Assembly: GCA_051251855.1 (NCBI GenBank) | Contig: JBPOGI010000003.1 | Span: forward strand, 1-64,000 | Length of the DNA stretch: 64,000 nt | Source: Roseibacillus sp. | Lineage (GTDB): Bacteria > Verrucomicrobiota > Verrucomicrobiia > Verrucomicrobiales > Akkermansiaceae | Reading direction: 5' to 3' | Shown: positions 1 through 15,201 of the stretch, piece by piece | Layout of the letters: every line of letters starts with the position of its first letter | Numbering within the stretch: the stretch's first letter is position 1 | Translations under genes and position numbers: made by a program | The notes under the pieces: generated by a model | Databases searched by the model: none | What the model saw: the letters and a program-made list of their open reading frames with translations, nothing else | Told to the model about the DNA's origin: nothing

Positions 1-67
1 CACTGCCTGCCACAGAATCCGAAGCTCCGAACTCGCTCACCGCTCCACAGCTATCACGCTATTTTCA
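1..67 (-). other. Cassette 12 (partial), member of the ORF-less repeat cassette family
   Basis: Matches 1277-1343 with 4 substitutions in 67 nt and abuts an attC core. Confidence 0.75.
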
Positions 68-196
68 GCAGAACGTTCCAGCACACCCAATCCGACCGAC
101 TCAGCGCACTTTCACTACTTCTATCACGTTCCCTCCTCTAGTCAATCCTCCGACTCACCAGCGCGGTCGGATTTGTGGTGCTGCGGCCGGTTATGC
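68..196 (-). repeat. attC site (type A, variant spacer)
   Basis: GCAGAAC 68-74 ... GTTATGC 190-196; arms cagcac/gtgctg and aatccgaccg/cggtcggatt. Confidence 0.92.
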
Positions 197-290
197 AGGT
201 AGAGCCATTACCGGTTGATAAAATACCGGTCGTTCTTACTGGACCGAATACTGTGCCTCGTCAGAACCACGAACCGAAACGCTGCCAGCC

Positions 291-330
291 AAAACCTGCC
301 AGAACCTGCCAGAACCTGCCAGAACCTGCC
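291..330. repeat. Tandem repeat (agaacctgcc) x4
   Basis: aaaacctgcc followed by three exact agaacctgcc. Confidence 0.97.
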
Positions 331-386
331 ACAGACTCTATCACTCCGAACTCGCTTACCTCACGCGCTACTAGCCACAGAATTCG

Positions 387-467
387 TCATGCTACCCTGT
401 CAATCTGCGCGACATCCGTCACATCAACTTCGTCAGCTACTGCAACGACTACAACGGTAGTTTCCAT
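387..467 (-). CDS. Possible 26-aa peptide METTVVVVAVADEVDVTDVAQIDRVA
   Basis: ATG one base after the cassette core, near where other cassette genes start; hand-translated to TGA at 389-387. Confidence 0.35.
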   Translation of the reverse strand: METTVVVVAVADEVDVTDVAQIDRVA

Positions 468-468
468 T

Positions 469-597
469 GCATAACGTTTTAGCACACCCAATCCGACCGA
501 CTCAGCGCACCTTCACTACTTCTACCACGCCCCCTCCTCCAGTCAAGCCTCCGACCCACCAGCGCGGTCGGATTTGTGGTGCTGCGTCTTGTTCGCC
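469..597 (-). repeat. attC site (type A)
   Basis: GCATAAC 469-475 ... GTTCGCC 591-597. Confidence 0.93.
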
Positions 598-610
598 CAT
601 TCTACTAGTT

Positions 611-973
611 TCACTGGGACATAAGTCCATCAAACGAAATAAGAACACCGCAAACGCAAATCGAGAGTAAAAGAAGAGCCCACGCAAGAGAAACAATCGT
701 AATTATGCGCAGATGATTAACCCCACAGCCCCGAAATAGAGCCACTACTAGCCATAGAAGGGGCAGTAATGGACAGATCCAAAAACCGGGAACTCCCGCC
801 ATAAACAACCTCGAAATCAAGGGCACATCGACACCACCTGTAAAATCCTCGTAAAAGTTACCGAATCGCGCACCTCCAAGAAAACAAAGGGACGATACAC
901 CGAGCGCCGTTAAAACGGCGGTCCACGCGCAAAAAGACCATACTCCAATAGCCATGTGATCTACTTTTCCCAT
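611..973 (-). CDS. Cassette 10: small membrane protein (about 3 hydrophobic segments)
   Basis: 120-aa ORF filling the cassette between GTTCGCC and GGCGAAC; ATG 6 nt after the core. Confidence 0.8.
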   Translation of the reverse strand: MGKVDHMAIGVWSFCAWTAVLTALGVSSLCFLGGARFGNFYEDFTGGVDVPLISRLFMAGVPGFWICPLLPLLWLVVALFRGCGVNHLRIITIVSLAWALLLLSICVCGVLISFDGLMSQ

Positions 974-979
974 TTTTCT

Positions 980-1108
980 GGCGAACGTTTGAGCACACCC
1001 AATCCGACCGACTCAGCGCACTTTCATTAGTTCTATCACTTCCCCTCCTCCAGTCAAGCCTCCGACCCACCAGCGCGGTCGGATTTGGCGTGCTGCGTCT
1101 TGTTCTGC
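980..1108 (-). repeat. attC site (type A)
   Basis: GGCGAAC 980-986 ... GTTCTGC 1102-1108. Confidence 0.93.
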
Positions 1109-1343
1109 ATCTTATTCACCGAACCGGTTCCGTGGACTTGCAGACCGCGATTGTTCGTCTTCGCAGCCCCGTCAAAACTTCGAATCATCAGTAAACAGAG
1201 ACTCCGTTACCTCGAACTCGCCATTTCATCCACTGCCAGCCACAGACTCCATCACCTCGAACTCGCCCACCTCACGCACTGCCAGCCACAGAATCCGATG
1301 CTCCGAACTCGCTCACCGCACCACAGCTACCACGCTATTTTCA
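1109..1343 (-). other. Cassette 9: ORF-less cassette with three ~45-bp internal repeats
   Basis: Cores GTTCTGC/GCAGAAC; cgaactcgc at 1213, 1258, 1304; no long minus-strand ORF. Confidence 0.85.
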
Positions 1344-1472
1344 GCAGAACGTTCCAGCACACCCAATCCGACCGTCTCAGCGCGCTTTCAATACTTCTAC
1401 CACGCTCCCTCCTCCAGTCAAGCCTTCGACCCACCAGCGCGGTCGGATTTGTGGTGCTGCGTCTTGTTCTGC
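1344..1472 (-). repeat. attC site (type A)
   Basis: GCAGAAC 1344-1350 ... GTTCTGC 1466-1472. Confidence 0.93.
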
Positions 1473-1487
1473 CTAGTTCGTCCTGTG

Positions 1488-1949
1488 CTACTTTAATTCA
1501 AGGCTTCGAACCAGCAACTCTGCCGTTTCGCCCTCGATAATGCTCCATCTGTCGTGGTAGACGCCTACGACATCCTGTAACTCGTCTTCGGATAGTGCCA
1601 TATTTTGGTGAGCTAGATAGATTCGTGGCGAGCCAGTTGCAATACTGTTCAGAAGAAGTCTCCATCCCGTTCCGCTTGAAGCCACCTTATACTCCAACCT
1701 CGTCACACTCTCGCTCACAGGAAGAGCAAGCAAATAATCTGGCACCAAATCTCCAAGCTCTGACGGGGGTGAGTCATTGTCTACTTCATACTCGTCCAAA
1801 GCCTTGAGAACCGTCCAGTACGAACTGTGAATCTCATCTTCGACTGTAAACGCTCTGAACAGTTGATAGGTATTCCAGCCAATCACCGATCCACAGACGA
1901 GCACAAATGTGAGCGCTGAAGCTATAATCTGCCTACGAGTCATAGTCAT
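1488..1949 (-). CDS. Cassette 8: membrane-anchored protein with a pilin/pseudopilin-like segment
   Basis: N-terminal hydrophobic helix then ALDEYEVDNDSPPSELGDLVPDYL, reminiscent of GspG-like proteins; start moved to the ATG just after the core. Confidence 0.7.
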   Translation of the reverse strand: MTMTRRQIIASALTFVLVCGSVIGWNTYQLFRAFTVEDEIHSSYWTVLKALDEYEVDNDSPPSELGDLVPDYLLALPVSESVTRLEYKVASSGTGWRLLLNSIATGSPRIYLAHQNMALSEDELQDVVGVYHDRWSIIEGETAELLVRSLELK

Positions 1950-1956
1950 ATTTTTT

Positions 1957-2085
1957 GCAGAACGTTTCAGCACACCCAATCCGACCGTCTCAGCGCGCTT
2001 TCACTACTTCTACCACGTCCCCTCCTCCAGTCAAGCCTCCGACCCACTAGCGCGGTCGGATTTGTGGTGCTGCGTCTTGTTCGGC
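1957..2085 (-). repeat. attC site (type A; contains the stop codon of the upstream ORF)
   Basis: GCAGAAC 1957-1963 ... GTTCGGC 2079-2085. Confidence 0.93.
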
Positions 2086-2517
2086 CTTTCTGAGTGTTTC
2101 TCTGGTAGCCGTCCACAGTTCCATTCTTGATTCTCCATCTAGCTTAGCAAGTTGAATTCTCCCGATTAACGAAAACACTTCGGTGATCCCCATGAGAACG
2201 AGAAGAGTGATAGACACATGCGTCCAACCAATTTGATAGAGGGCGTATGCGATGTGGACTGTTCCGAAAACGAAAACAAAAGGTGACTTACGATTCATCT
2301 GCTCTCCGCATAGCGCAAAACCTTGCGGTGTGAGCACGAAGATAATTGACAGCACTTTGAGAGCAGCAAACGCAATGATTAGGGTAGATATAAGCGCTAG
2401 GGCCAAAACGGCACCGTGCTGCTCAGCTTTGTGAAGCCATATTAAAGCCTGAGGCAAAACGATAAAGAAAATCGCGACGGCCGCTCGAATAATCAGTGGC
2501 CTTTGTCTCTTCTTCAT
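2047..2517 (-). CDS. Cassette 7: membrane protein (about 4 TM), C-terminus runs into attC
   Basis: 156-aa ORF; last residues AEQDAAPQIRPR are encoded by attC. Confidence 0.8.
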   Translation of the reverse strand: MKKRQRPLIIRAAVAIFFIVLPQALIWLHKAEQHGAVLALALISTLIIAFAALKVLSIIFVLTPQGFALCGEQMNRKSPFVFVFGTVHIAYALYQIGWTHVSITLLVLMGITEVFSLIGRIQLAKLDGESRMELWTATRETLRKAEQDAAPQIRPR

Positions 2518-2524
2518 TTTTTCA

Positions 2525-2658
2525 GCCGAACGCCGAGCACACCCAATCTGACCACGAAATCAAACGATGATGAAAAACCAAAACGACACCACCGAAGAAG
2601 CAAAACCCCAAGCCAACTCGCCAGCGGGTCAGATTTGTGGTGCTGCGTCTTGTTCTAC
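2525..2658 (-). repeat. attC site (divergent type C with an A-rich, apparently coding loop)
   Basis: GCCGAAC 2525-2531 ... GTTCTAC 2652-2658; compensatory arms aatctgacc/ggtcagatt. Confidence 0.88.
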
Positions 2659-2842
2659 GTCTGAGCAGAGACCACTGCGAGACGTGACTGTTGCACGCTT
2701 GCTCTCGGACTATTCAAAGGCTCTTGCTGATTTGGAAGAAGACCACGGAATCCAAGTGGATTGGCCACCAGAAACCTACGCGCTAATGTTGGATTTGGAA
2801 CTCCAACTCGGACGACTAAAAGCGATTGTTCCTTTTCCGTAG
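2567..2842 (+). CDS. Cassette 6: inverted 91-aa hypothetical protein starting inside attC
   Basis: ATG ATG in A-rich context in the attC loop; TAG inside core GTAGAAC; helical, protein-like C-terminal part. Confidence 0.65.
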   Translation: MMKNQNDTTEEAKPQANSPAGQICGAASCSTSEQRPLRDVTVARLLSDYSKALADLEEDHGIQVDWPPETYALMLDLELQLGRLKAIVPFP

Positions 2843-2966
2843 AACGTTTCAGCACACCCAGACCGTCCGCCTCAGCACGCTTTCAATACTTCTATCACGC
2901 TCAAATCTCCTGTCAATAAGTCAGCAACGAGAGCGGTCGGTCTTGCGGTGCTGCGTCTTGTTCTGC
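2839..2966 (-). repeat. attC site (type B)
   Basis: GTAGAAC 2839-2845 ... GTTCTGC 2960-2966; interior matches 3394-3507. Confidence 0.92.
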
Positions 2967-2975
2967 ACGGATTGA

Positions 2976-3371
2976 TTATCCAGTGACAGCGATTCTTTCT
3001 AGCTCGTCCCAGAGGACCTCGTAATTCTCGAAAATGATTCTGTCCTGCTCCGGTATTACGCTCTGCGGATCAGTCAGAGTCATCCAGTCATCCCAAGTGC
3101 CACAATACCCCACCGGAGCACTTCTTGTAATTTCCTCAATTCTCTTAACAGCTTTGGCGAGCACATCCTTATTGAGCTTCGTCAGGATGTTCTCTAAAGC
3201 GACGAGGTCATCCCATGCAGGTGAGATATTGTAGAGAAATCCTGATAGACCCCCGTTCTCGAATTCGCAGAGAAATCTGTAGACGTGGAATATTCTGGTA
3301 GCTTCCTCGTCTAGCGCTTCTCGGCCAGAGTTGGCCTCGAGTTCAAGAACTTCTTGGCAGGTATCGAGCAT
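2976..3371 (-). CDS. Cassette 5: DUF4375/DMP19-like protein
   Basis: Acidic 131-aa protein with EFENGGLSGFLYN, matching the E-x-x-NGG-x-x-x-F-x-x-N motif. Confidence 0.7.
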   Translation of the reverse strand: MLDTCQEVLELEANSGREALDEEATRIFHVYRFLCEFENGGLSGFLYNISPAWDDLVALENILTKLNKDVLAKAVKRIEEITRSAPVGYCGTWDDWMTLTDPQSVIPEQDRIIFENYEVLWDELERIAVTG

Positions 3372-3386
3372 CTTTGGAATTTTTCA

Positions 3387-3514
3387 GCAGAACGTTTCAG
3401 CACACCCAGACCGTCCGCCTCAGCACGCTTTCAATACTTCTATCACGCTCAAATCTCCTGTCAATAAGTCAGCAACGAGAGCGGTCGGTCTTGCGGTGCT
3501 GCGTCTTGTTATGC
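3387..3514 (-). repeat. attC site (type B)
   Basis: GCAGAAC 3387-3393 ... GTTATGC 3508-3514. Confidence 0.92.
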
Positions 3515-3579
3515 CTTTCTGGTATCCTCGCCGCTTTTGATAGCCTGTAAATATCTACAGTAACTTTGGCGTTTTTCCA

Positions 3580-3879
3580 CTACATCTCAGCGTCTCGAAC
3601 CTCACGTCCAAGAGCCAGTGACAATCTGGAACAAATGAGACTCAACCAACCACACCAAAGAGGTGTCTCGATCACTCCTTCGCAAAGCAATCCACTTGGT
3701 TCGATAGAAACACAGATGAAACGGGAAGCCCCTTCCTCTCCAAACCAACTGGGACAAGAGCCACCGACCGGTGCAACATAGCCTTCAATTGAGCGATAAA
3801 CTTCTTCAACCTTGAGCCACTCAGCCTCTGGAAGGTCATACGGCAGGTTTAGAGTTATCGAGTGTCGCTCAGGATTCAT
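3580..3879 (-). CDS. Cassette 4: hypothetical protein
   Basis: 99-aa ORF, ATG 6 nt after the core. Confidence 0.8.
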   Translation of the reverse strand: MNPERHSITLNLPYDLPEAEWLKVEEVYRSIEGYVAPVGGSCPSWFGEEGASRFICVSIEPSGLLCEGVIETPLWCGWLSLICSRLSLALGREVRDAEM

Positions 3880-3885
3880 ATTTTA

Positions 3886-4014
3886 GCATAACGTTTCAGC
3901 ACACCCAATCCGACCGTCTGAGCGCACTTTCACTACTTCTACCACGTTCCCTCCTCCAGTCAAGCCTCCGACCCACCTGCGCGGTCGGATTTGTGGTGCT
4001 GCGTCTTGTTCGGC
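3886..4014 (-). repeat. attC site (type A)
   Basis: GCATAAC 3886-3892 ... GTTCGGC 4008-4014. Confidence 0.93.
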
Positions 4015-4131
4015 ATGCCTTGGTCTTCAGAGGTTTGGTGACTTTAAATAATTCGTAAGCATCAACCCACTATGTCGACTCAAACTACGTGGATATCGTC
4101 ACCGTCCTATCCTGTTCGGCCCGTTCAATCA

Positions 4132-4386
4132 TTACTCTTGCGCGGCTGCTTCCGATTTATAGGACCTGATTGCTATCCCCAAGGCGACTCCAAAGAGAGG
4201 GACTGATGCAATCAATATCGTGCACATCAAATCAACTTGTTCCACGAGATTCTGGAGACCATCAGGCCCTCCTCCATCTAGTCCGAGAATCTCTGTTTGA
4301 GCATCTCTAACTAAACCTGCCAGCCAAAAATAGGCGAAAACCAAAGCTATTAGAGTAACAATGAGCAACCTGATTACGTATTTCAT
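4132..4386 (-). CDS. Cassette 3: small 2-TM membrane protein
   Basis: 84 aa from MKYVIRLL; two hydrophobic helices. Confidence 0.78.
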   Translation of the reverse strand: MKYVIRLLIVTLIALVFAYFWLAGLVRDAQTEILGLDGGGPDGLQNLVEQVDLMCTILIASVPLFGVALGIAIRSYKSEAAAQE

Positions 4387-4402
4387 TTTCTCAGTTTTTT
4401 CT

Positions 4403-4531
4403 GCCGAACGTTTCAGCACACCCAATCCGACCGTCTCAGCGCGCTTTCACTACTTCTACCACGTTCCCTCCTCCAGTCAAGCCTCCGATCCACCAGCGCG
4501 GTCGGATTTGTGGTGCTGCGTCTTGTTCTGC
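4403..4531 (-). repeat. attC site (type A)
   Basis: GCCGAAC 4403-4409 ... GTTCTGC 4525-4531. Confidence 0.93.
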
Positions 4532-4547
4532 ACTCCTAGCGCCTCGA

Positions 4548-5171
4548 TTACTTGGCTGATTCTGAGCCGTCTACTATTGGCTCTCGCTCCTTGGCCAAAA
4601 TATCAAAGAGGGAACGGAGATGAGTAAGAGAATCTTCGTCGAGCTGCTTATCGTCGTCAGAGAAATCAGAGCCTGGAAGCGCAAATGAAAGCTTCTTCAG
4701 AAGAACTAGTGGCGCATTTCGCCCCTCACTAAGGTTCTCTGCCGACTCTCTTGCTCCCTCGTAACAGAATACCTTCAGCATTCCTCCTCTTAGAAAGTAG
4801 TCCACAACTGCTGGCTTATTGCTAGCTCCGCCATTCCAGATCCAGCGCACTCGTTCTACAGAAGCCCCGTTTGAAAAGAAAAAGTAGAAGTGTCCGCTTG
4901 AACCGTCCTCGAATTCCTCAGCACTAGCGTTCCATTCGGGAAGCGATTCCGGCTTGCCACTCCAAAGTGGAGACGCCTCTTCAGTCCAATGAGGCTCAAC
5001 TGCGGCTTTTATCCCGTTCTGTTCAAGAAATCTACGGTAAACAGATTCGTCGAGATAGTAGGAGAGCAGTTCTCCGGTATCCAGCTCGCTATCGAGCACC
5101 GTCTCGGAGTAACACTCCATCGAGGCAGTGGCTAACAATGGAGCTATTATGCAAATGGATAAGGGCCTCAT
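4548..5171 (-). CDS. Cassette 2: exported hypothetical protein
   Basis: 207-aa ORF with a signal-peptide-like N-terminus filling the cassette. Confidence 0.8.
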   Translation of the reverse strand: MRPLSICIIAPLLATASMECYSETVLDSELDTGELLSYYLDESVYRRFLEQNGIKAAVEPHWTEEASPLWSGKPESLPEWNASAEEFEDGSSGHFYFFFSNGASVERVRWIWNGGASNKPAVVDYFLRGGMLKVFCYEGARESAENLSEGRNAPLVLLKKLSFALPGSDFSDDDKQLDEDSLTHLRSLFDILAKEREPIVDGSESAK

Positions 5172-5177
5172 TTTTCA

Positions 5178-5306
5178 GCAGAACGTTTCAGCACACCCAA
5201 TCCGACCGTCTCAGCGCGCTTTCGCTACTTCTATCACGTTCCCTTCTCCAGTCAAGCCTCCGACCCACCAGCGCGGTCGGATTTGTGGTGCTGCGTCTTG
5301 TTCGCC
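5178..5306 (-). repeat. attC site (type A)
   Basis: GCAGAAC 5178-5184 ... GTTCGCC 5300-5306. Confidence 0.93.
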
Positions 5307-5312
5307 CAACAT

Positions 5313-5774
5313 TCAGCCTTCAGCGGCCTCTTCCTTCGCTGAGAGAAGTCGGCCCTCAACCCAAGCAGAATACCTCTCGAATATATCGGCATCCTCATCA
5401 ATTGCCTCACCATTGGCGATTTGGCCAAAGTTGTAGCAACCCGTCCACGCGATCACGTATTCCCCTTCGGAATCCCTTGTTTCGGTGTCGAAGAATACAA
5501 CACCCGCGTCGTTCCAATCGTTCAGGATGACGTAGCGGTTCGGCAGAAACATAGATTTACGGCATCTGAGCGTCGCTTCGACTGAATCCGCCAAACTATC
5601 AACCCCAGCCGAGAAAGAATATCCGACCTTGGTAAGAAGCCATGTCATCGTGGGAGGCAACCTACAACCAAGAGAAGCTTCTGCCGCTGCGATGGTTCCA
5701 GCGTCTTCAGGAGCAACACCCTCAAACCACTCTGAATTCTCCGAAACGAAATTCTTAAATTGCGGTAGAGTCAT
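5313..5774 (-). CDS. Cassette 1: SMI1/KNR4 (SUKH) family immunity-like protein
   Basis: IAAAEASLGCRLPPTMTWLL...G matches the SUKH N-terminal E-x-x-LG-x-x-LP pattern; C-terminal F-x-x-Y-x-x-W. Confidence 0.8.
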   Translation of the reverse strand: MTLPQFKNFVSENSEWFEGVAPEDAGTIAAAEASLGCRLPPTMTWLLTKVGYSFSAGVDSLADSVEATLRCRKSMFLPNRYVILNDWNDAGVVFFDTETRDSEGEYVIAWTGCYNFGQIANGEAIDEDADIFERYSAWVEGRLLSAKEEAAEG

Positions 5775-5780
5775 TTTTCA

Positions 5781-5865
5781 GGCGAACGTTAATTATACGG
5801 AGTCAGCACTAATGTCAATCAGGCGGAATGCGGACTAATGGAATTAGACTGATGCAGCCTAATCG
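5781..5865 (-). other. attI-like primary recombination site
   Basis: Core GGCGAAC 5781-5787 complementary to GTTCGCC 5300-5306, with no attC arm beyond it; lies between first cassette and intI; repeated ctaat motifs. Confidence 0.8.
5792..5818 (-). promoter_or_regulatory. Candidate Pc cassette promoter TTGACA-N15-TATAAT
   Basis: Both hexamers are perfect consensus on the minus strand (5818-5813, 5797-5792); spacer is short. Confidence 0.6.
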
Positions 5866-5921
5866 CGGTTTGGATGCTTGGAAGTGACTTTTTCGCGATA
5901 TTACCGCTCCTAAAGCTTGGT

Positions 5922-7313
5922 ATGAGTAAAGAACAGCGAAAGTCACAGCTGGAGTCGAGTTCCGAGGGTTCGAAAGAGGTGTTTTTGGGTCGGTTTTCCC
6001 TTTTGCTCCAGGAAAAAGGGATTCCGTTGGAGGTGGTTCCGTTTTACGAATTTTTCCTTCAGAGATGGGGTCAGTTTCTAAGGTCGCAACCAAATGACCG
6101 ACTGCGGGAGGAGGTTTTCAGGGATTGGCTGGTGCAATTAGACGGAAATAAGAAGCTGGAGAGCTATCAGATTCATCAGGCGATTCGAGCGGTGCGGTGG
6201 GCTCATGGCGAGATTTTGGGTGAGACTTGGGCGAAGGAAATGGATTGGCTGATGATTGAGGGCTCTTTGGGGTTGAGGGACGAGAATTCGAGTGAGGCTG
6301 ATCGTTGGTCTCTGGAGGGCTATGAGGCTCGGTTGCGTTTGAAGGGTTTGGGCGATCGCTCGGTGGAAATTTTGATGCGGGCTTTTGGGGCTTTGAGAGG
6401 CCGGAATTATGCCTATCGGACGGAAACGACGTATTTGAGTTGGGGAGAGCGTTTTATGGAGCAGGTGGAGGGGCGTGGAGTAGGCCCGACTCTGGAGCAG
6501 GGGCAGCTTTTTCTGGAGGCGTTGGCTTTGGAGAGGAAGGTGGCTCCCTCGACTCAGAAGCTGGCGTTGAGCGCGCTTTCTTTTTTGTTTCGGGAGGGTT
6601 TGGGGATGGATGATCCTAAATTTGGGACGTTTGCGCTGGCGAAGGGGAAGCGAAGGATTCCGGTGGTGCTTTCGACTGATGAGGTGCGGCGGCTCTTGGG
6701 GGAGACGGATGGGACTTGGGGGTTATTGGCGGAGTTGTTGTATGGGTCGGGTTTGCGGTTGATGGAGGGTATTCGGTTGCGGGTGAAGGATATCGATTTC
6801 GATCTGGGTATGATTGTGGTGAGGGAGGGTAAGGGTAGAAAGGATAGGCGGACGGCTTTGCCAAAGAGTTTGGAAGGGCGTTTGAGGGAGCATTTGGAGG
6901 GAATCCGTGAACTCTACGATGAGGATAGGAGAGACGATTTGGCTGGGGTTTGGTTGCCGCATGCGGCTGAGCGAAAGGCTCCTATTTGGGCTAAAGAATG
7001 GGGTTGGTTTTGGCTCTTCCCTTCTCAACGCCGAAGTGTGGATCCTCGAGGGGGCGCTGTTCGCAGGCACCATGTGAATGAGGTGGGTTTGCAGAAGACG
7101 GTGAAGGCTGCGGCGATGCGTGCTGGAATTGTTAAGAAGGTGAGTTGCCACACGCTCAGGCATTCGTTCGCGACGCATTTACTGGAGAGTGGAAGGGATA
7201 TTCGGACGGTGCAGGAGCTTTTGGGGCATGAAGATGTGAGAACGACGGAGATTTATACTCATGTGTTGAATCGGCCAGGGGATGTGATGGGGAGTCCGTT
7301 GGATGATTTGTAA
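5922..7313 (+). CDS. intI: Integron integrase (tyrosine recombinase) with N-terminal extension
   Basis: YGSGLRLME, GKGRKDR, HTLRHSFATHLLE, LLGH..TTEIYTHV plus integron insertion GVWLPHAAERK..WGWFWLFPS..DPR..RRHH; start could be 5874. Confidence 0.95.
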   Translation: MSKEQRKSQLESSSEGSKEVFLGRFSLLLQEKGIPLEVVPFYEFFLQRWGQFLRSQPNDRLREEVFRDWLVQLDGNKKLESYQIHQAIRAVRWAHGEILGETWAKEMDWLMIEGSLGLRDENSSEADRWSLEGYEARLRLKGLGDRSVEILMRAFGALRGRNYAYRTETTYLSWGERFMEQVEGRGVGPTLEQGQLFLEALALERKVAPSTQKLALSALSFLFREGLGMDDPKFGTFALAKGKRRIPVVLSTDEVRRLLGETDGTWGLLAELLYGSGLRLMEGIRLRVKDIDFDLGMIVVREGKGRKDRRTALPKSLEGRLREHLEGIRELYDEDRRDDLAGVWLPHAAERKAPIWAKEWGWFWLFPSQRRSVDPRGGAVRRHHVNEVGLQKTVKAAAMRAGIVKKVSCHTLRHSFATHLLESGRDIRTVQELLGHEDVRTTEIYTHVLNRPGDVMGSPLDDL

Positions 7314-12923: not shown

Positions 12924-13705
12924 AGGTATCAATTGTCCATCGTGTTGCAGCGCTATTCATTGGAGCCAGCGCTTTGTCTGGCCAGACACTGAACACGAAA
13001 GAGTTAGAGGACAACTTACAGGATCTTTCCACTCCCCCTCGGGATAGGGTTGTTGATTTTGGGGAGGTCTTTAGTGCCGGGAGCAGCTCTCGGACTGATT
13101 TGTCTCGCCGCTTGGACGCACTCAACGAACGTTATCAATTCTCGGTCTATTATATCGCCTATTCGGGGATCATTGGCAGTAACGTAGGGGAAAAGGCGGC
13201 CGAGTTTCGGGACCTTTGGCTAGGGACGGAAGAAGAGGGCCTCGTCTTCGTTTGTGACACCGATATGAAGACGGTCTCTTACGCCCTCACGAAGGTGGAT
13301 AGCTTCCCCATAGATGGAAGTATCCACACTTGGAAGCTTCCCGACCACGAAGTCGTTCAAGCGATGCTTAAGCTCTCCAGCATCGATGCTGAGGATATGA
13401 ACGAAGAGGAGTATCTCGGTGCTATGGGGCATACCCTTACAGACGAGTTGGAAAGCCGTCTGAAATCCGAACCAAGTTCAGGAGTGAGAAATACGGGAGG
13501 TATTCTGGGAACAATCGGCGCTGCCGCAGGTCTCATCGGTATCAGTGTTTGGTGGATCAAACGAAGAAGCGGAACGACTTCCAGTACAATTGAGGGGCCA
13601 CTTTTTCCAACAATGGAAATTCCCAACCGGCTAGGCGCCCACTTTGGTGGCGGGACCGTCTGCGAGATTTCGTATCAAGCTCCCCCTTCGCCAACAGACT
13701 CCTGA
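12920..13705 (+). CDS. Membrane-anchored hypothetical protein, TPM-domain-like
   Basis: Signal peptide, VVDFGEVFS...LSRRL pattern, C-terminal TM; GTGA overlap with lspA. Confidence 0.65.
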   Translation: MKVSIVHRVAALFIGASALSGQTLNTKELEDNLQDLSTPPRDRVVDFGEVFSAGSSSRTDLSRRLDALNERYQFSVYYIAYSGIIGSNVGEKAAEFRDLWLGTEEEGLVFVCDTDMKTVSYALTKVDSFPIDGSIHTWKLPDHEVVQAMLKLSSIDAEDMNEEEYLGAMGHTLTDELESRLKSEPSSGVRNTGGILGTIGAAAGLIGISVWWIKRRSGTTSSTIEGPLFPTMEIPNRLGAHFGGGTVCEISYQAPPSPTDS

Positions 13706-13773
13706 CACAGACAGAGGGTGTCATTCAGACTTTGAACTTGAGCCCCAACTGAGCTGTGGGATGTTAGTGGGGT

Positions 13774-15201
13774 ATGCGTAGTTTGATAGCTTTCCTCTTC
13801 TTGGGTCTTTCGATGGCTCTTTCTGGCCAGACCTTTGGGCCCAGCAATGAGCGTCCCCCAGCAGTGCCCCGCGAATTCCGAGGCGCTTGGTCGGCTTGCG
13901 TCTACAATATCGACTGGCCTAGTCGCAAAGGAATGAGCGCCGCGTCCCAGCAAGCGGAACTCCGGTCGATTTTAAACAAAATGCAGTCGTTGAATATGAA
14001 TGCGCTCATTTTTCAGGTCCGTCCCAATGCCGACGCAGTCTATCGTTCATCGCTTGAGCCTTGGAGTTCTTGGATTAGTGGCACAATGGGTCGCTCTCCT
14101 GGTTACGATCCACTGACCTTTTGTATTAATGAAGCTCACGCCCGCGGTATCGAGGTCCACGCGTGGTTCAACCCTTTCCGAGCTTTGCCCAATAGCAGTA
14201 TGCCGGCGGCGAGTAATCACGTCACACGGACCAACCCTTCAGTGATTCGCCGTTTTAAGAACTACAGTTGGATGGATCCTGCTAGCTCTTGGACCCGTAG
14301 TCATGCCTTGAAGGTGATGATGGATGTGGTTCGACGCTACGATATTGATGGCCTTCATATCGACGACTACTTCTACCCTTATCCAGACGTGCACAAGAAT
14401 GGCACGCCGAAGCAGATTTTTCCCGACGGAAAGTCTCCCTCTCAACGAAGGTCATATGTGGATAGTTTCGTGAAAAACATGTATTCCACGGTGAAACGTG
14501 AGAAGCCATGGGTGCGCGTGGGCATCAGTCCCTTCGGCATCTGGCGACCAGGCGTTCCTGCTGGGACAACAGCACGAATCGACGCCTACAGCCATTTAGC
14601 GGCAGACTCACGTAAGTGGCTTGCGAACGGCTGGTGTGACTATCTTAGCCCCCAGCTCTACTGGCGTATCAATAGTGAGCAGAGCTTTACTCGTCTGCTG
14701 ACTTGGTGGCGCCAGCAGGGGCAGCGCCCAGTCTGGCCTGGGGTTGCGACCTCACGCATTCAATCATCTGAAGATCCAGGACGAACTGCGGGCGAGATGG
14801 TCAATCAACTCAACCTCACTCGAACAGTGGGTCGTAACTGGGTGGGGCACGTACACTGGAGCATGAAGTCGATTATGCAGAATCGTGGCGGCCTCAACAA
14901 TTCGCTCCAGCGTGGATTCTATGGAGAGGCGGCGCTTGTTCCCCCCATGCCATGGCTTAGCACGAAGGCGCCAAGCTCCCCTCGGGTGAACGCTAGCGGA
15001 ACATCCGTTAGTTGGTCCCGAGTGCCTGGGGCTTCCAAGTATGCCCTTCAAGCGCGTTATGGTAAAAATTGGCGTTGCTTACGCGTGCTATCAGGAGGTG
15101 CTACCAAGGCAAGTGTCCCTGCAGGAGCTCAAGCCATTGCGGTAACAGCTGTCGATCGCTTCGGAACAGCGAGCGCTCCGAGTGTGGTTTCAGCGCGATA
15201 G
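13774..15201 (+). CDS. Glycosyl hydrolase-like 10 (YddW/DUF187) protein
   Basis: REFRGAW, FQVRP..DA.Y.S..EPWS, EVHAWFNPFR, YDIDGLHIDDYFYPY. Confidence 0.92.
   Translation: MRSLIAFLFLGLSMALSGQTFGPSNERPPAVPREFRGAWSACVYNIDWPSRKGMSAASQQAELRSILNKMQSLNMNALIFQVRPNADAVYRSSLEPWSSWISGTMGRSPGYDPLTFCINEAHARGIEVHAWFNPFRALPNSSMPAASNHVTRTNPSVIRRFKNYSWMDPASSWTRSHALKVMMDVVRRYDIDGLHIDDYFYPYPDVHKNGTPKQIFPDGKSPSQRRSYVDSFVKNMYSTVKREKPWVRVGISPFGIWRPGVPAGTTARIDAYSHLAADSRKWLANGWCDYLSPQLYWRINSEQSFTRLLTWWRQQGQRPVWPGVATSRIQSSEDPGRTAGEMVNQLNLTRTVGRNWVGHVHWSMKSIMQNRGGLNNSLQRGFYGEAALVPPMPWLSTKAPSSPRVNASGTSVSWSRVPGASKYALQARYGKNWRCLRVLSGGATKASVPAGAQAIAVTAVDRFGTASAPSVVSAR

Follow-up and report, generated by a model that had tools for sequence, protein, structure and literature searches.

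Integron arrays are usually seen as tools of their host, and attC as a non-coding tag behind the gene of a cassette. Near the start of the window, by which we mean the whole analysed stretch of 64,000 nucleotides from a Roseibacillus sp. contig, lies a cassette with a 91-aa open reading frame that starts within the loop of its own attC and runs against the direction of the array. The initial annotation described it as an inverted cassette of a reverse-polarity class, perhaps acquired from an oppositely transcribed array, for example on a phage. Is this frame a gene, and how could a gene that begins inside attC have come to lie in a bacterial integron?

The cassette and its attC within the integron

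The array at the start of the window is encoded on the minus strand and lies beside an intact integron integrase gene in a complete chromosomal integron (Table 1). Eleven attC sites were located within positions 68–5306 of the window and 37 in the whole genome. They belong to a homogeneous family of about 129 nt, which is also present in records of Roseibacillus, Haloferula, and Persicirhabdus; the host is accordingly probably a Roseibacillus-like, marine member of the Verrucomicrobia. The neighbouring cassettes are ordinary, with Pfam matches that include DMP19 (gene at 2976–3371, cassette 5) and the immunity-type SMI1/KNR4 (gene at 5313–5774, cassette 1). Three cassettes of the genome carry a second attC sub-type with a loop sequence of its own (2839–2966, 3387–3514, and on contig C2). 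Two further cassettes (72–472 and 984–1347) are rich in 10-nt and ~46-nt repeats and show no clear gene; a low-scoring plus-strand frame in 175–474 ends with TAA in the core, and the longest frame varies between copies, a related one of which was found on contig C6 near 11655. The same contig encodes a second integron integrase (13384–14307), 37% identical to the first and adjoining attC sites of the same family.

Table 1. Features of the reversed-gene cassette and of its integron, given as positions in the window.
Feature	Positions	Strand	Remarks
attC of the cassette	2525–2658	+	bottom strand, the one that recombines; polarity shared with the other 10 sites of the window; from alignment, fold, and model score (58.6 bits)
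Hybrid R' core GCCGAAC	2525–2531	+	crossover triplet AAC at 2529–2531
Crossover-frame tail NAEHTQSDHEIKR*	2529–2570	+	TGA at 2568–2570 overlaps ATG 2567 (ATGA) and ATG 2570 (TGATG); putative stop/start coupling module
Cassette, 314 bp, sixth from attI	2531–2844		delimited by two G/TT crossover points; 314 from AAC to AAC; 4/4 complementary to its own core
A-rich variable loop	2557–2626	+	contains both ATGs and roughly 20 codons from the start
91-aa open reading frame	2567–2842	+	first 29 codons lie within attC and are modelled as disordered; helices 42–60 and 68–87; pI 4.5; no confirmed homologue
R'' GTTCTACG	2652–2659	+	read as C-S-T in the open reading frame; complementary to the R' half of the same cassette
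Rival open frame, 66 aa	2655–2855	−	stops at TAG in R''; judged non-coding
CGTAGAAC	2838–2845	+	stop TAG (2840–2842) in frame with the next crossover AAC
Putative attI junction	5779–5800		GGCGAAC followed by non-attC sequence; limits approximate
Integron integrase IntI	5874–7313	+	intact open reading frame, divergent from the array; TIGR02249 388 bits (cut-off 265); PF00589, PF13495

The limits of the cassette were examined by an own-core test, in which the four bases after GTT are compared with the four bases before the cassette's downstream AAC. Across the 28 complete cassettes of the genome, 26 matched their own core, as opposed to 3 that matched the core of the neighbour. The reversed-gene cassette matched its own at all four bases, and its modelled circular form showed a pairing of 8 bp. 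The test places the crossover at 2844/2845, so that the stop codon lies inside the unit, on the cassette side, as had been proposed. By its sequence, this is a real cassette made by an integrase, and IntI is predicted to excise and insert it.

The attC itself retains both arms, with 17 of 21 bases on the left and 27 of 28 on the right identical to the canonical copy at 1957, and its fold shows the same stem, with the loop left open. The loop has been replaced, as the initial annotation had also recognised: it contains 29 A in 63 nt, versus 11 A in the C/T-rich loop of the canonical site. Because the loop is open, the folding energy of the whole site is no better than that of shuffles (z = −0.49). 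The pair CTGACC/GGTCAG, which had been called compensatory, is indeed present in the arms, but it is also a standing variant in ordinary sites (C10, L039). The 4-nt spacer beside AAC likewise occurs in ordinary sites of another genus. A sequence model whose training set was limited to 25 canonical host sites, with the site under study left out, recognised the attC over its full length and on the strand of its neighbours. Since strand and order agree with those of the neighbours, the cassette is not flipped; the gene alone is reversed relative to its own site, and of the supposed inversion only this part holds.

The open reading frame and its coding potential

The coordinates previously given for the frame were right. 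It starts at a double ATG in the loop, the arm is translated as GQICGAASCS, and the TAG within GTAGAAC is its stop codon. The cassette body of 180 nt has two open frames, namely this one and a minus-strand frame stopping in R'', which was absent from the initial annotation. We scored all six frames with codon and amino-acid coding models trained on 1349 long open reading frames. The plus frame ranked first in both (codon 2.0, amino acid 6.7); the minus frame scored −8.6 and −1.4 and stayed open in 17% of shuffles, and no open reading frame with an ATG was found on the top (minus) strand inside the cassette. When the models were checked on 34 windows of neighbouring cassette genes, the true frame came first in 24 (codon) and 32 (amino acid). 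Dinucleotide shuffling of the body (n = 5000) left the plus frame open in 3.7%, and 2 of those 185 sequences (~1%) equalled its amino-acid score. Furthermore, 5 of 65 distinct host cassettes (29 of them from this genome) score higher on the bottom strand, yet only the reversed-gene cassette combines a high bottom-strand score (8.3; −5.1 to 2.9 in the other four) with a start in the loop. Shine–Dalgarno motifs are rare in this host (97 of 1349), and the A-rich start context of the frame falls in the 88th–91st percentile of a rough reference, the first ATGs of long open reading frames. A single-sequence AlphaFold model shows a disordered attC-encoded head followed by two helices with a pLDDT of about 80. 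On these statistics, rather than on conservation, the plus frame is very probably coding.

Homologues of the protein were searched for in several collections. No family was assigned by Pfam, PHROGs, or NCBIfam, the only match in the 90% protein set was the protein itself, and the ESM Atlas gave no usable match; the language-model recognition score (1854) lies under the 2300 typical of known families. The representative protein set returned three matches: the protein itself, a 3956-aa repeat protein that was rejected for its low complexity, and the protein P0003 (E = 6e-4). The last failed an independent test, as a profile of P0004 only did not place the frame among the top 8 of the genome's six-frame translations, and the combined profile of P0003 and P0004 reached it at E = 2.1. 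P0003 and P0004 form an uncharacterised family with 3–4 repeats of G[VI]xVDW-x9-DxE, for which no Pfam entry is listed; P0004 lacks an Atlas match. No homologue was detected in metagenome contigs, viral contigs, GenBank phages, or any of 8 genomes of the genus, and a fold search with the single-sequence model gave nothing at E ≤ 0.001 in BFVD or PDB. A single Rfam match, located elsewhere, was judged to be chance.

Stop/start overlaps and hairpin arrays in phages and relatives

Besides the start codons, the loop holds a stop codon in the frame of the crossover triplet. Among the host attC sites, 10 of 37 contain a stop of this frame within the hairpin, versus 19 of 20 phage hairpins (see below). 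An ATG within −4 to +5 of the stop was found in 1 of the 37 host sites, that of the reversed-gene cassette, versus 7 of the 20 phage hairpins. In addition, the TAG that ends the open reading frame shares its frame with the AAC of the following crossover. We infer that the overlap is a module for translational coupling. Upstream of the cassette in the present array, the AAC frame is fed by no open reading frame beyond 12 codons; hence, coupling cannot work in the present place, and the module looks as if built for another array.

Viral contigs were screened with a two-arm pattern in which an ATG was not required. The pattern gave 35 loci, 4 of which, representing 3 distinct hairpins, were attC-like by inspection; one (L204) was doubtful, and the remaining loci were judged to be chance. 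In all three hairpins, the loop contains an ATG that shares the arm frame of the reversed-gene cassette; the arms read GAAACS, RAAPCS, and RAAACC, compared to GAASCS in the latter, and one of the open reading frames starting in this way encodes a DNA methylase (PF01555, E = 1e-18; phrog_67, E = 6.5e-38). The proposed class, in which attC supplies the start codon and the N-terminal codons, is thereby borne out, and we regard such mirror cassettes as well supported. As to the phage link, the architecture speaks for it, but viral collections contained neither a homologue of the protein nor a copy of the exact site, only related sites. Three scans of viral contigs with the exact arms gave 0, 4, and 11 loci, all judged to be chance, and a corrected pattern gave 4 loci, i.e., the 3 already seen and 1 due to chance.

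The three phage records with these hairpins contained 17 strict hairpins in 144.6 kb, versus none in 416 kb of shuffles. Their crossover polarity equals that of the host, and 9 of 11 testable units matched their own core at all four bases. The attC model built from host sites only matched 7 hairpins in two of the records, with rough E-values between 3e-8 and 7.5e-4, and none in the third. With 3 weaker hairpins added by eye, the set comprised 20 units. Of these, 14 have their coding sequence on the bottom strand and 4 show strong genes on the top strand; one of the remaining two is marginal, and the other lacks an open reading frame. In 7 of the 14 bottom-strand units, a positive-scoring open reading frame begins in the hairpin, and 3 of the 7 model-matched hairpins belong to units whose main gene lies on the top strand. 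Both polarities thus mix on the phage side too. The four strong top-strand cassettes, of bacterial polarity, lie in the mirror-type array of one record (G584; L216:7613-9770 and L218 near 3980-4445), and in three of their attC loops a start codon with a purine-rich leader persists on the bottom strand. No match to IntI or PF00589 was found in the three records (control detected in 14 of 14), and two of them have terminal repeats.

Among 401 genomes of the family, the corrected attC pattern matched three, i.e., the present genome (G000), G265 with 1 site, and G434 with 40. The 22 units examined from them yielded no second clear mirror cassette, and the top-strand open reading frame was longer in 18. 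A DNA search with the loop sequence in 301 family genomes, scoring two candidates per genome, gave 4 matches that were judged to be chance. The large array of G434 (L225-L234) contains ordinary attC sites with A-rich, ATG-bearing loops and the 4-nt spacer, and one loop shares AAGAAGCAAAACCC with the loop of the cassette. Two genomes of the same genus have ATGAAAAAC in an attC loop that heads an ordinary top-strand cassette (L128:2319-2446 and L129:3106-3233). Since loops of this kind also precede ordinary cassettes in relatives, the presence of an ATG in one proves nothing by itself. The same variant attC was found in contigs of two other studies (X5 and X7, one a macroalgae metagenome), with unlike sequence beyond the site. 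In one study (X5), the copies differ by 12 substitutions, in the loop only, which leave no stop in frame, as do 66% of random sets; in the other, they differ by 8 substitutions and net-zero indels, and only the ATG frame stays open over the 30 bases that follow. These contigs, which show the site and not the cassette bodies, reveal a recurring site, not a recurring reversed gene. None of the joints in them could be read as the excised circle.

Proposed origin of the cassette and possible exchange with phages

The sequence itself gives the limits of the cassette, the polarity of its attC, a coding-like bottom-strand frame starting in attC, a stop in the frame of the next crossover, and the stop/start overlap in the loop. 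We propose, with a probability of roughly 0.6, that this is a cassette of phage format that was moved by IntI into the chromosomal array of the host, where it would be silent. In a bottom-strand operon of a phage, a ribosome leaving the upstream gene would read the crossover AAC, stop at the TGA in the loop, and restart at the overlapping ATG. Each attC would then end the upstream frame and start its own gene, so that cassettes could be reordered without a promoter or a ribosome-binding site. Phages of this type, which often appear to lack a tyrosine recombinase, would borrow the IntI of the host during infection; the enzyme would cut a cassette out of the phage array and join it to the attI of the host, and the cassette would subsequently be pushed down the array. 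There, its gene would face the integrase and remain unread from the array promoter, and the array would serve as a silent store, so that phages could later retrieve the cassette. The 91-aa product would then most likely be an accessory protein of the phage, small and acidic. The rare top-strand insertion would presumably not help expression either, because that crossover lies in R'', inside codons 28–30.

Against a phage origin stands the observation that the arms are nearly identical to those of the host and closer to them than to any phage hairpin found. Judged by the host-like arms and the empty exact-arm scans of viral contigs, a cassette made in the host, by a cassette-building process that sometimes fuses a gene with a host-type attC on its bottom strand, where the loop supplies a start, and with later acquisition by phages, would fit equally well. 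Canonical host families already possess A-rich, ATG-bearing loops, and the variant site recurs in two other sequencing studies. However, the overlap of stop and start and the in-frame end at the next AAC, the former seen once in the host sites and in about a third of the phage hairpins, make sense only in a bottom-strand operon, and a gene that cannot be read from the array promoter gives the host nothing under the polarity rule set out by Nivina 2016 (PMC5027507). We therefore consider such a host-made origin unlikely. It is more doubtful still that the cassette is gene-less, either regulatory or decayed, with a 91-aa frame open by chance. Gene-less cassettes are described as common and can carry antisense promoters (10.1101/2023.11.21.568050), and the missing homologue, the low recognition score, and the second open frame on the other strand would agree with this; on the other hand, an open frame with this amino-acid score was reached by about 2 in 5000 shuffles, and the two modelled helices, the start context, and the coupling module all argue for a gene.

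Expression in the host is a separate question. The gene could be read from the excised circle, or from antisense transcripts that cross the array, starting for instance in a gene-less cassette to its left, and could serve a host function, e.g., phage defence. Antisense promoters in gene-less cassettes are described for Vibrio (10.1101/2023.11.21.568050) and Treponema (PMC8876359), and the two repeat-rich cassettes lie upstream on the plus strand. Against this, we found no sigma-70-like site in positions 1–6200, where 4.2 were expected, although Verrucomicrobia promoters may not be covered by this search; moreover, the order of an array is not fixed, so that a promoter of this kind would be accidental. 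We regard host expression as improbable, slightly more so than a gene-less cassette. Pc was not located either, and that the frame is antisense to Pc follows from the layout as a presumption. The suggestion that the gene is expressed only after excision found no support in this promoter search. The least credible reading is an ordinary cassette, either with the minus frame as its real gene or turned upside down as a whole by top-strand recombination. In its favour, the minus frame has no internal stop and terminates in R'', as is usual for cassette genes, and top-strand insertion is known at a 1000–10000 times lower frequency (PMC5027507), but the negative scores of the minus frame and its openness in shuffles speak against the former, while the latter is excluded by the strand and order of the attC, so that this reading is largely refuted.

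In several respects the locus resembles known systems. Like the sedentary chromosomal integron cassettes treated by Nivina 2016 (PMC5027507), it has an intact IntI beside the array, homogeneous attC sites, an AAC crossover, and complementary R' and R'' in the circle; unlike in those, as described there, a bottom-strand gene starts in attC, uses 29 attC codons, and cannot be read from the array promoter. The phage arrays share with the phage CALINs of Qi 2023 (PMC9892861) attC arrays without an integrase and DNA methylase cargo. Sites competent for attI1 are a feature of the CALINs: phage attC sites recombined into attI1 in the laboratory, and a two-way exchange between phage CALINs and bacterial integrons was proposed. 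To our knowledge, that report does not describe bottom-strand genes, genes starting in attC, or a natural phage-type cassette in a bacterial array. Oppositely oriented or self-promoted cassettes, namely those with toxin–antitoxin genes, and gene-less promoter cassettes (PMC8876359, PMC11551772, 10.1101/2023.11.21.568050) are likewise exceptions to expression from Pc in otherwise ordinary arrays; as far as these sources describe them, they have a promoter of their own in the body, whereas here there is no room upstream and the start lies in attC together with a coupling stop. In full-text literature, with most subscription papers outside its coverage, we found nothing on bottom-strand genes starting inside attC, nor any case of the mirror layout in a bacterial array.

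Lying in a bacterial integron, an attC with a start codon, 29 codons, and a putative coupling stop connects the cassettes of bacteria with the mirror arrays of phages, and it hints at a common pool of cassettes used by bacteria and their viruses alike. There may be two mirror-image cassette formats with one recombination chemistry, where integrase-less phages use the IntI of the host, the host integron stores self-coupling cassettes unread, and phages catch cassettes of the host format; to this wider scheme we give even odds. If true, the cassette would be a natural record of exchange on the bacterial side, and chromosomal integrons would be a silent gene bank for attacking phages. As a host-type attC that heads a phage-format gene, it offers a substrate for two questions, i.e., whether integrase-less phages use host IntI and how cassettes and attC sites are made. 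Furthermore, some "gene-less" cassettes may hold backwards genes that were skipped by annotation.

Two more attC loops of this family were noticed in X5 contigs, at loose ends before 2040 and 2061. Each has an ATG whose reading frame apparently continues through the right arm, although the frame differs between the two, and both are candidate mirror cassettes.
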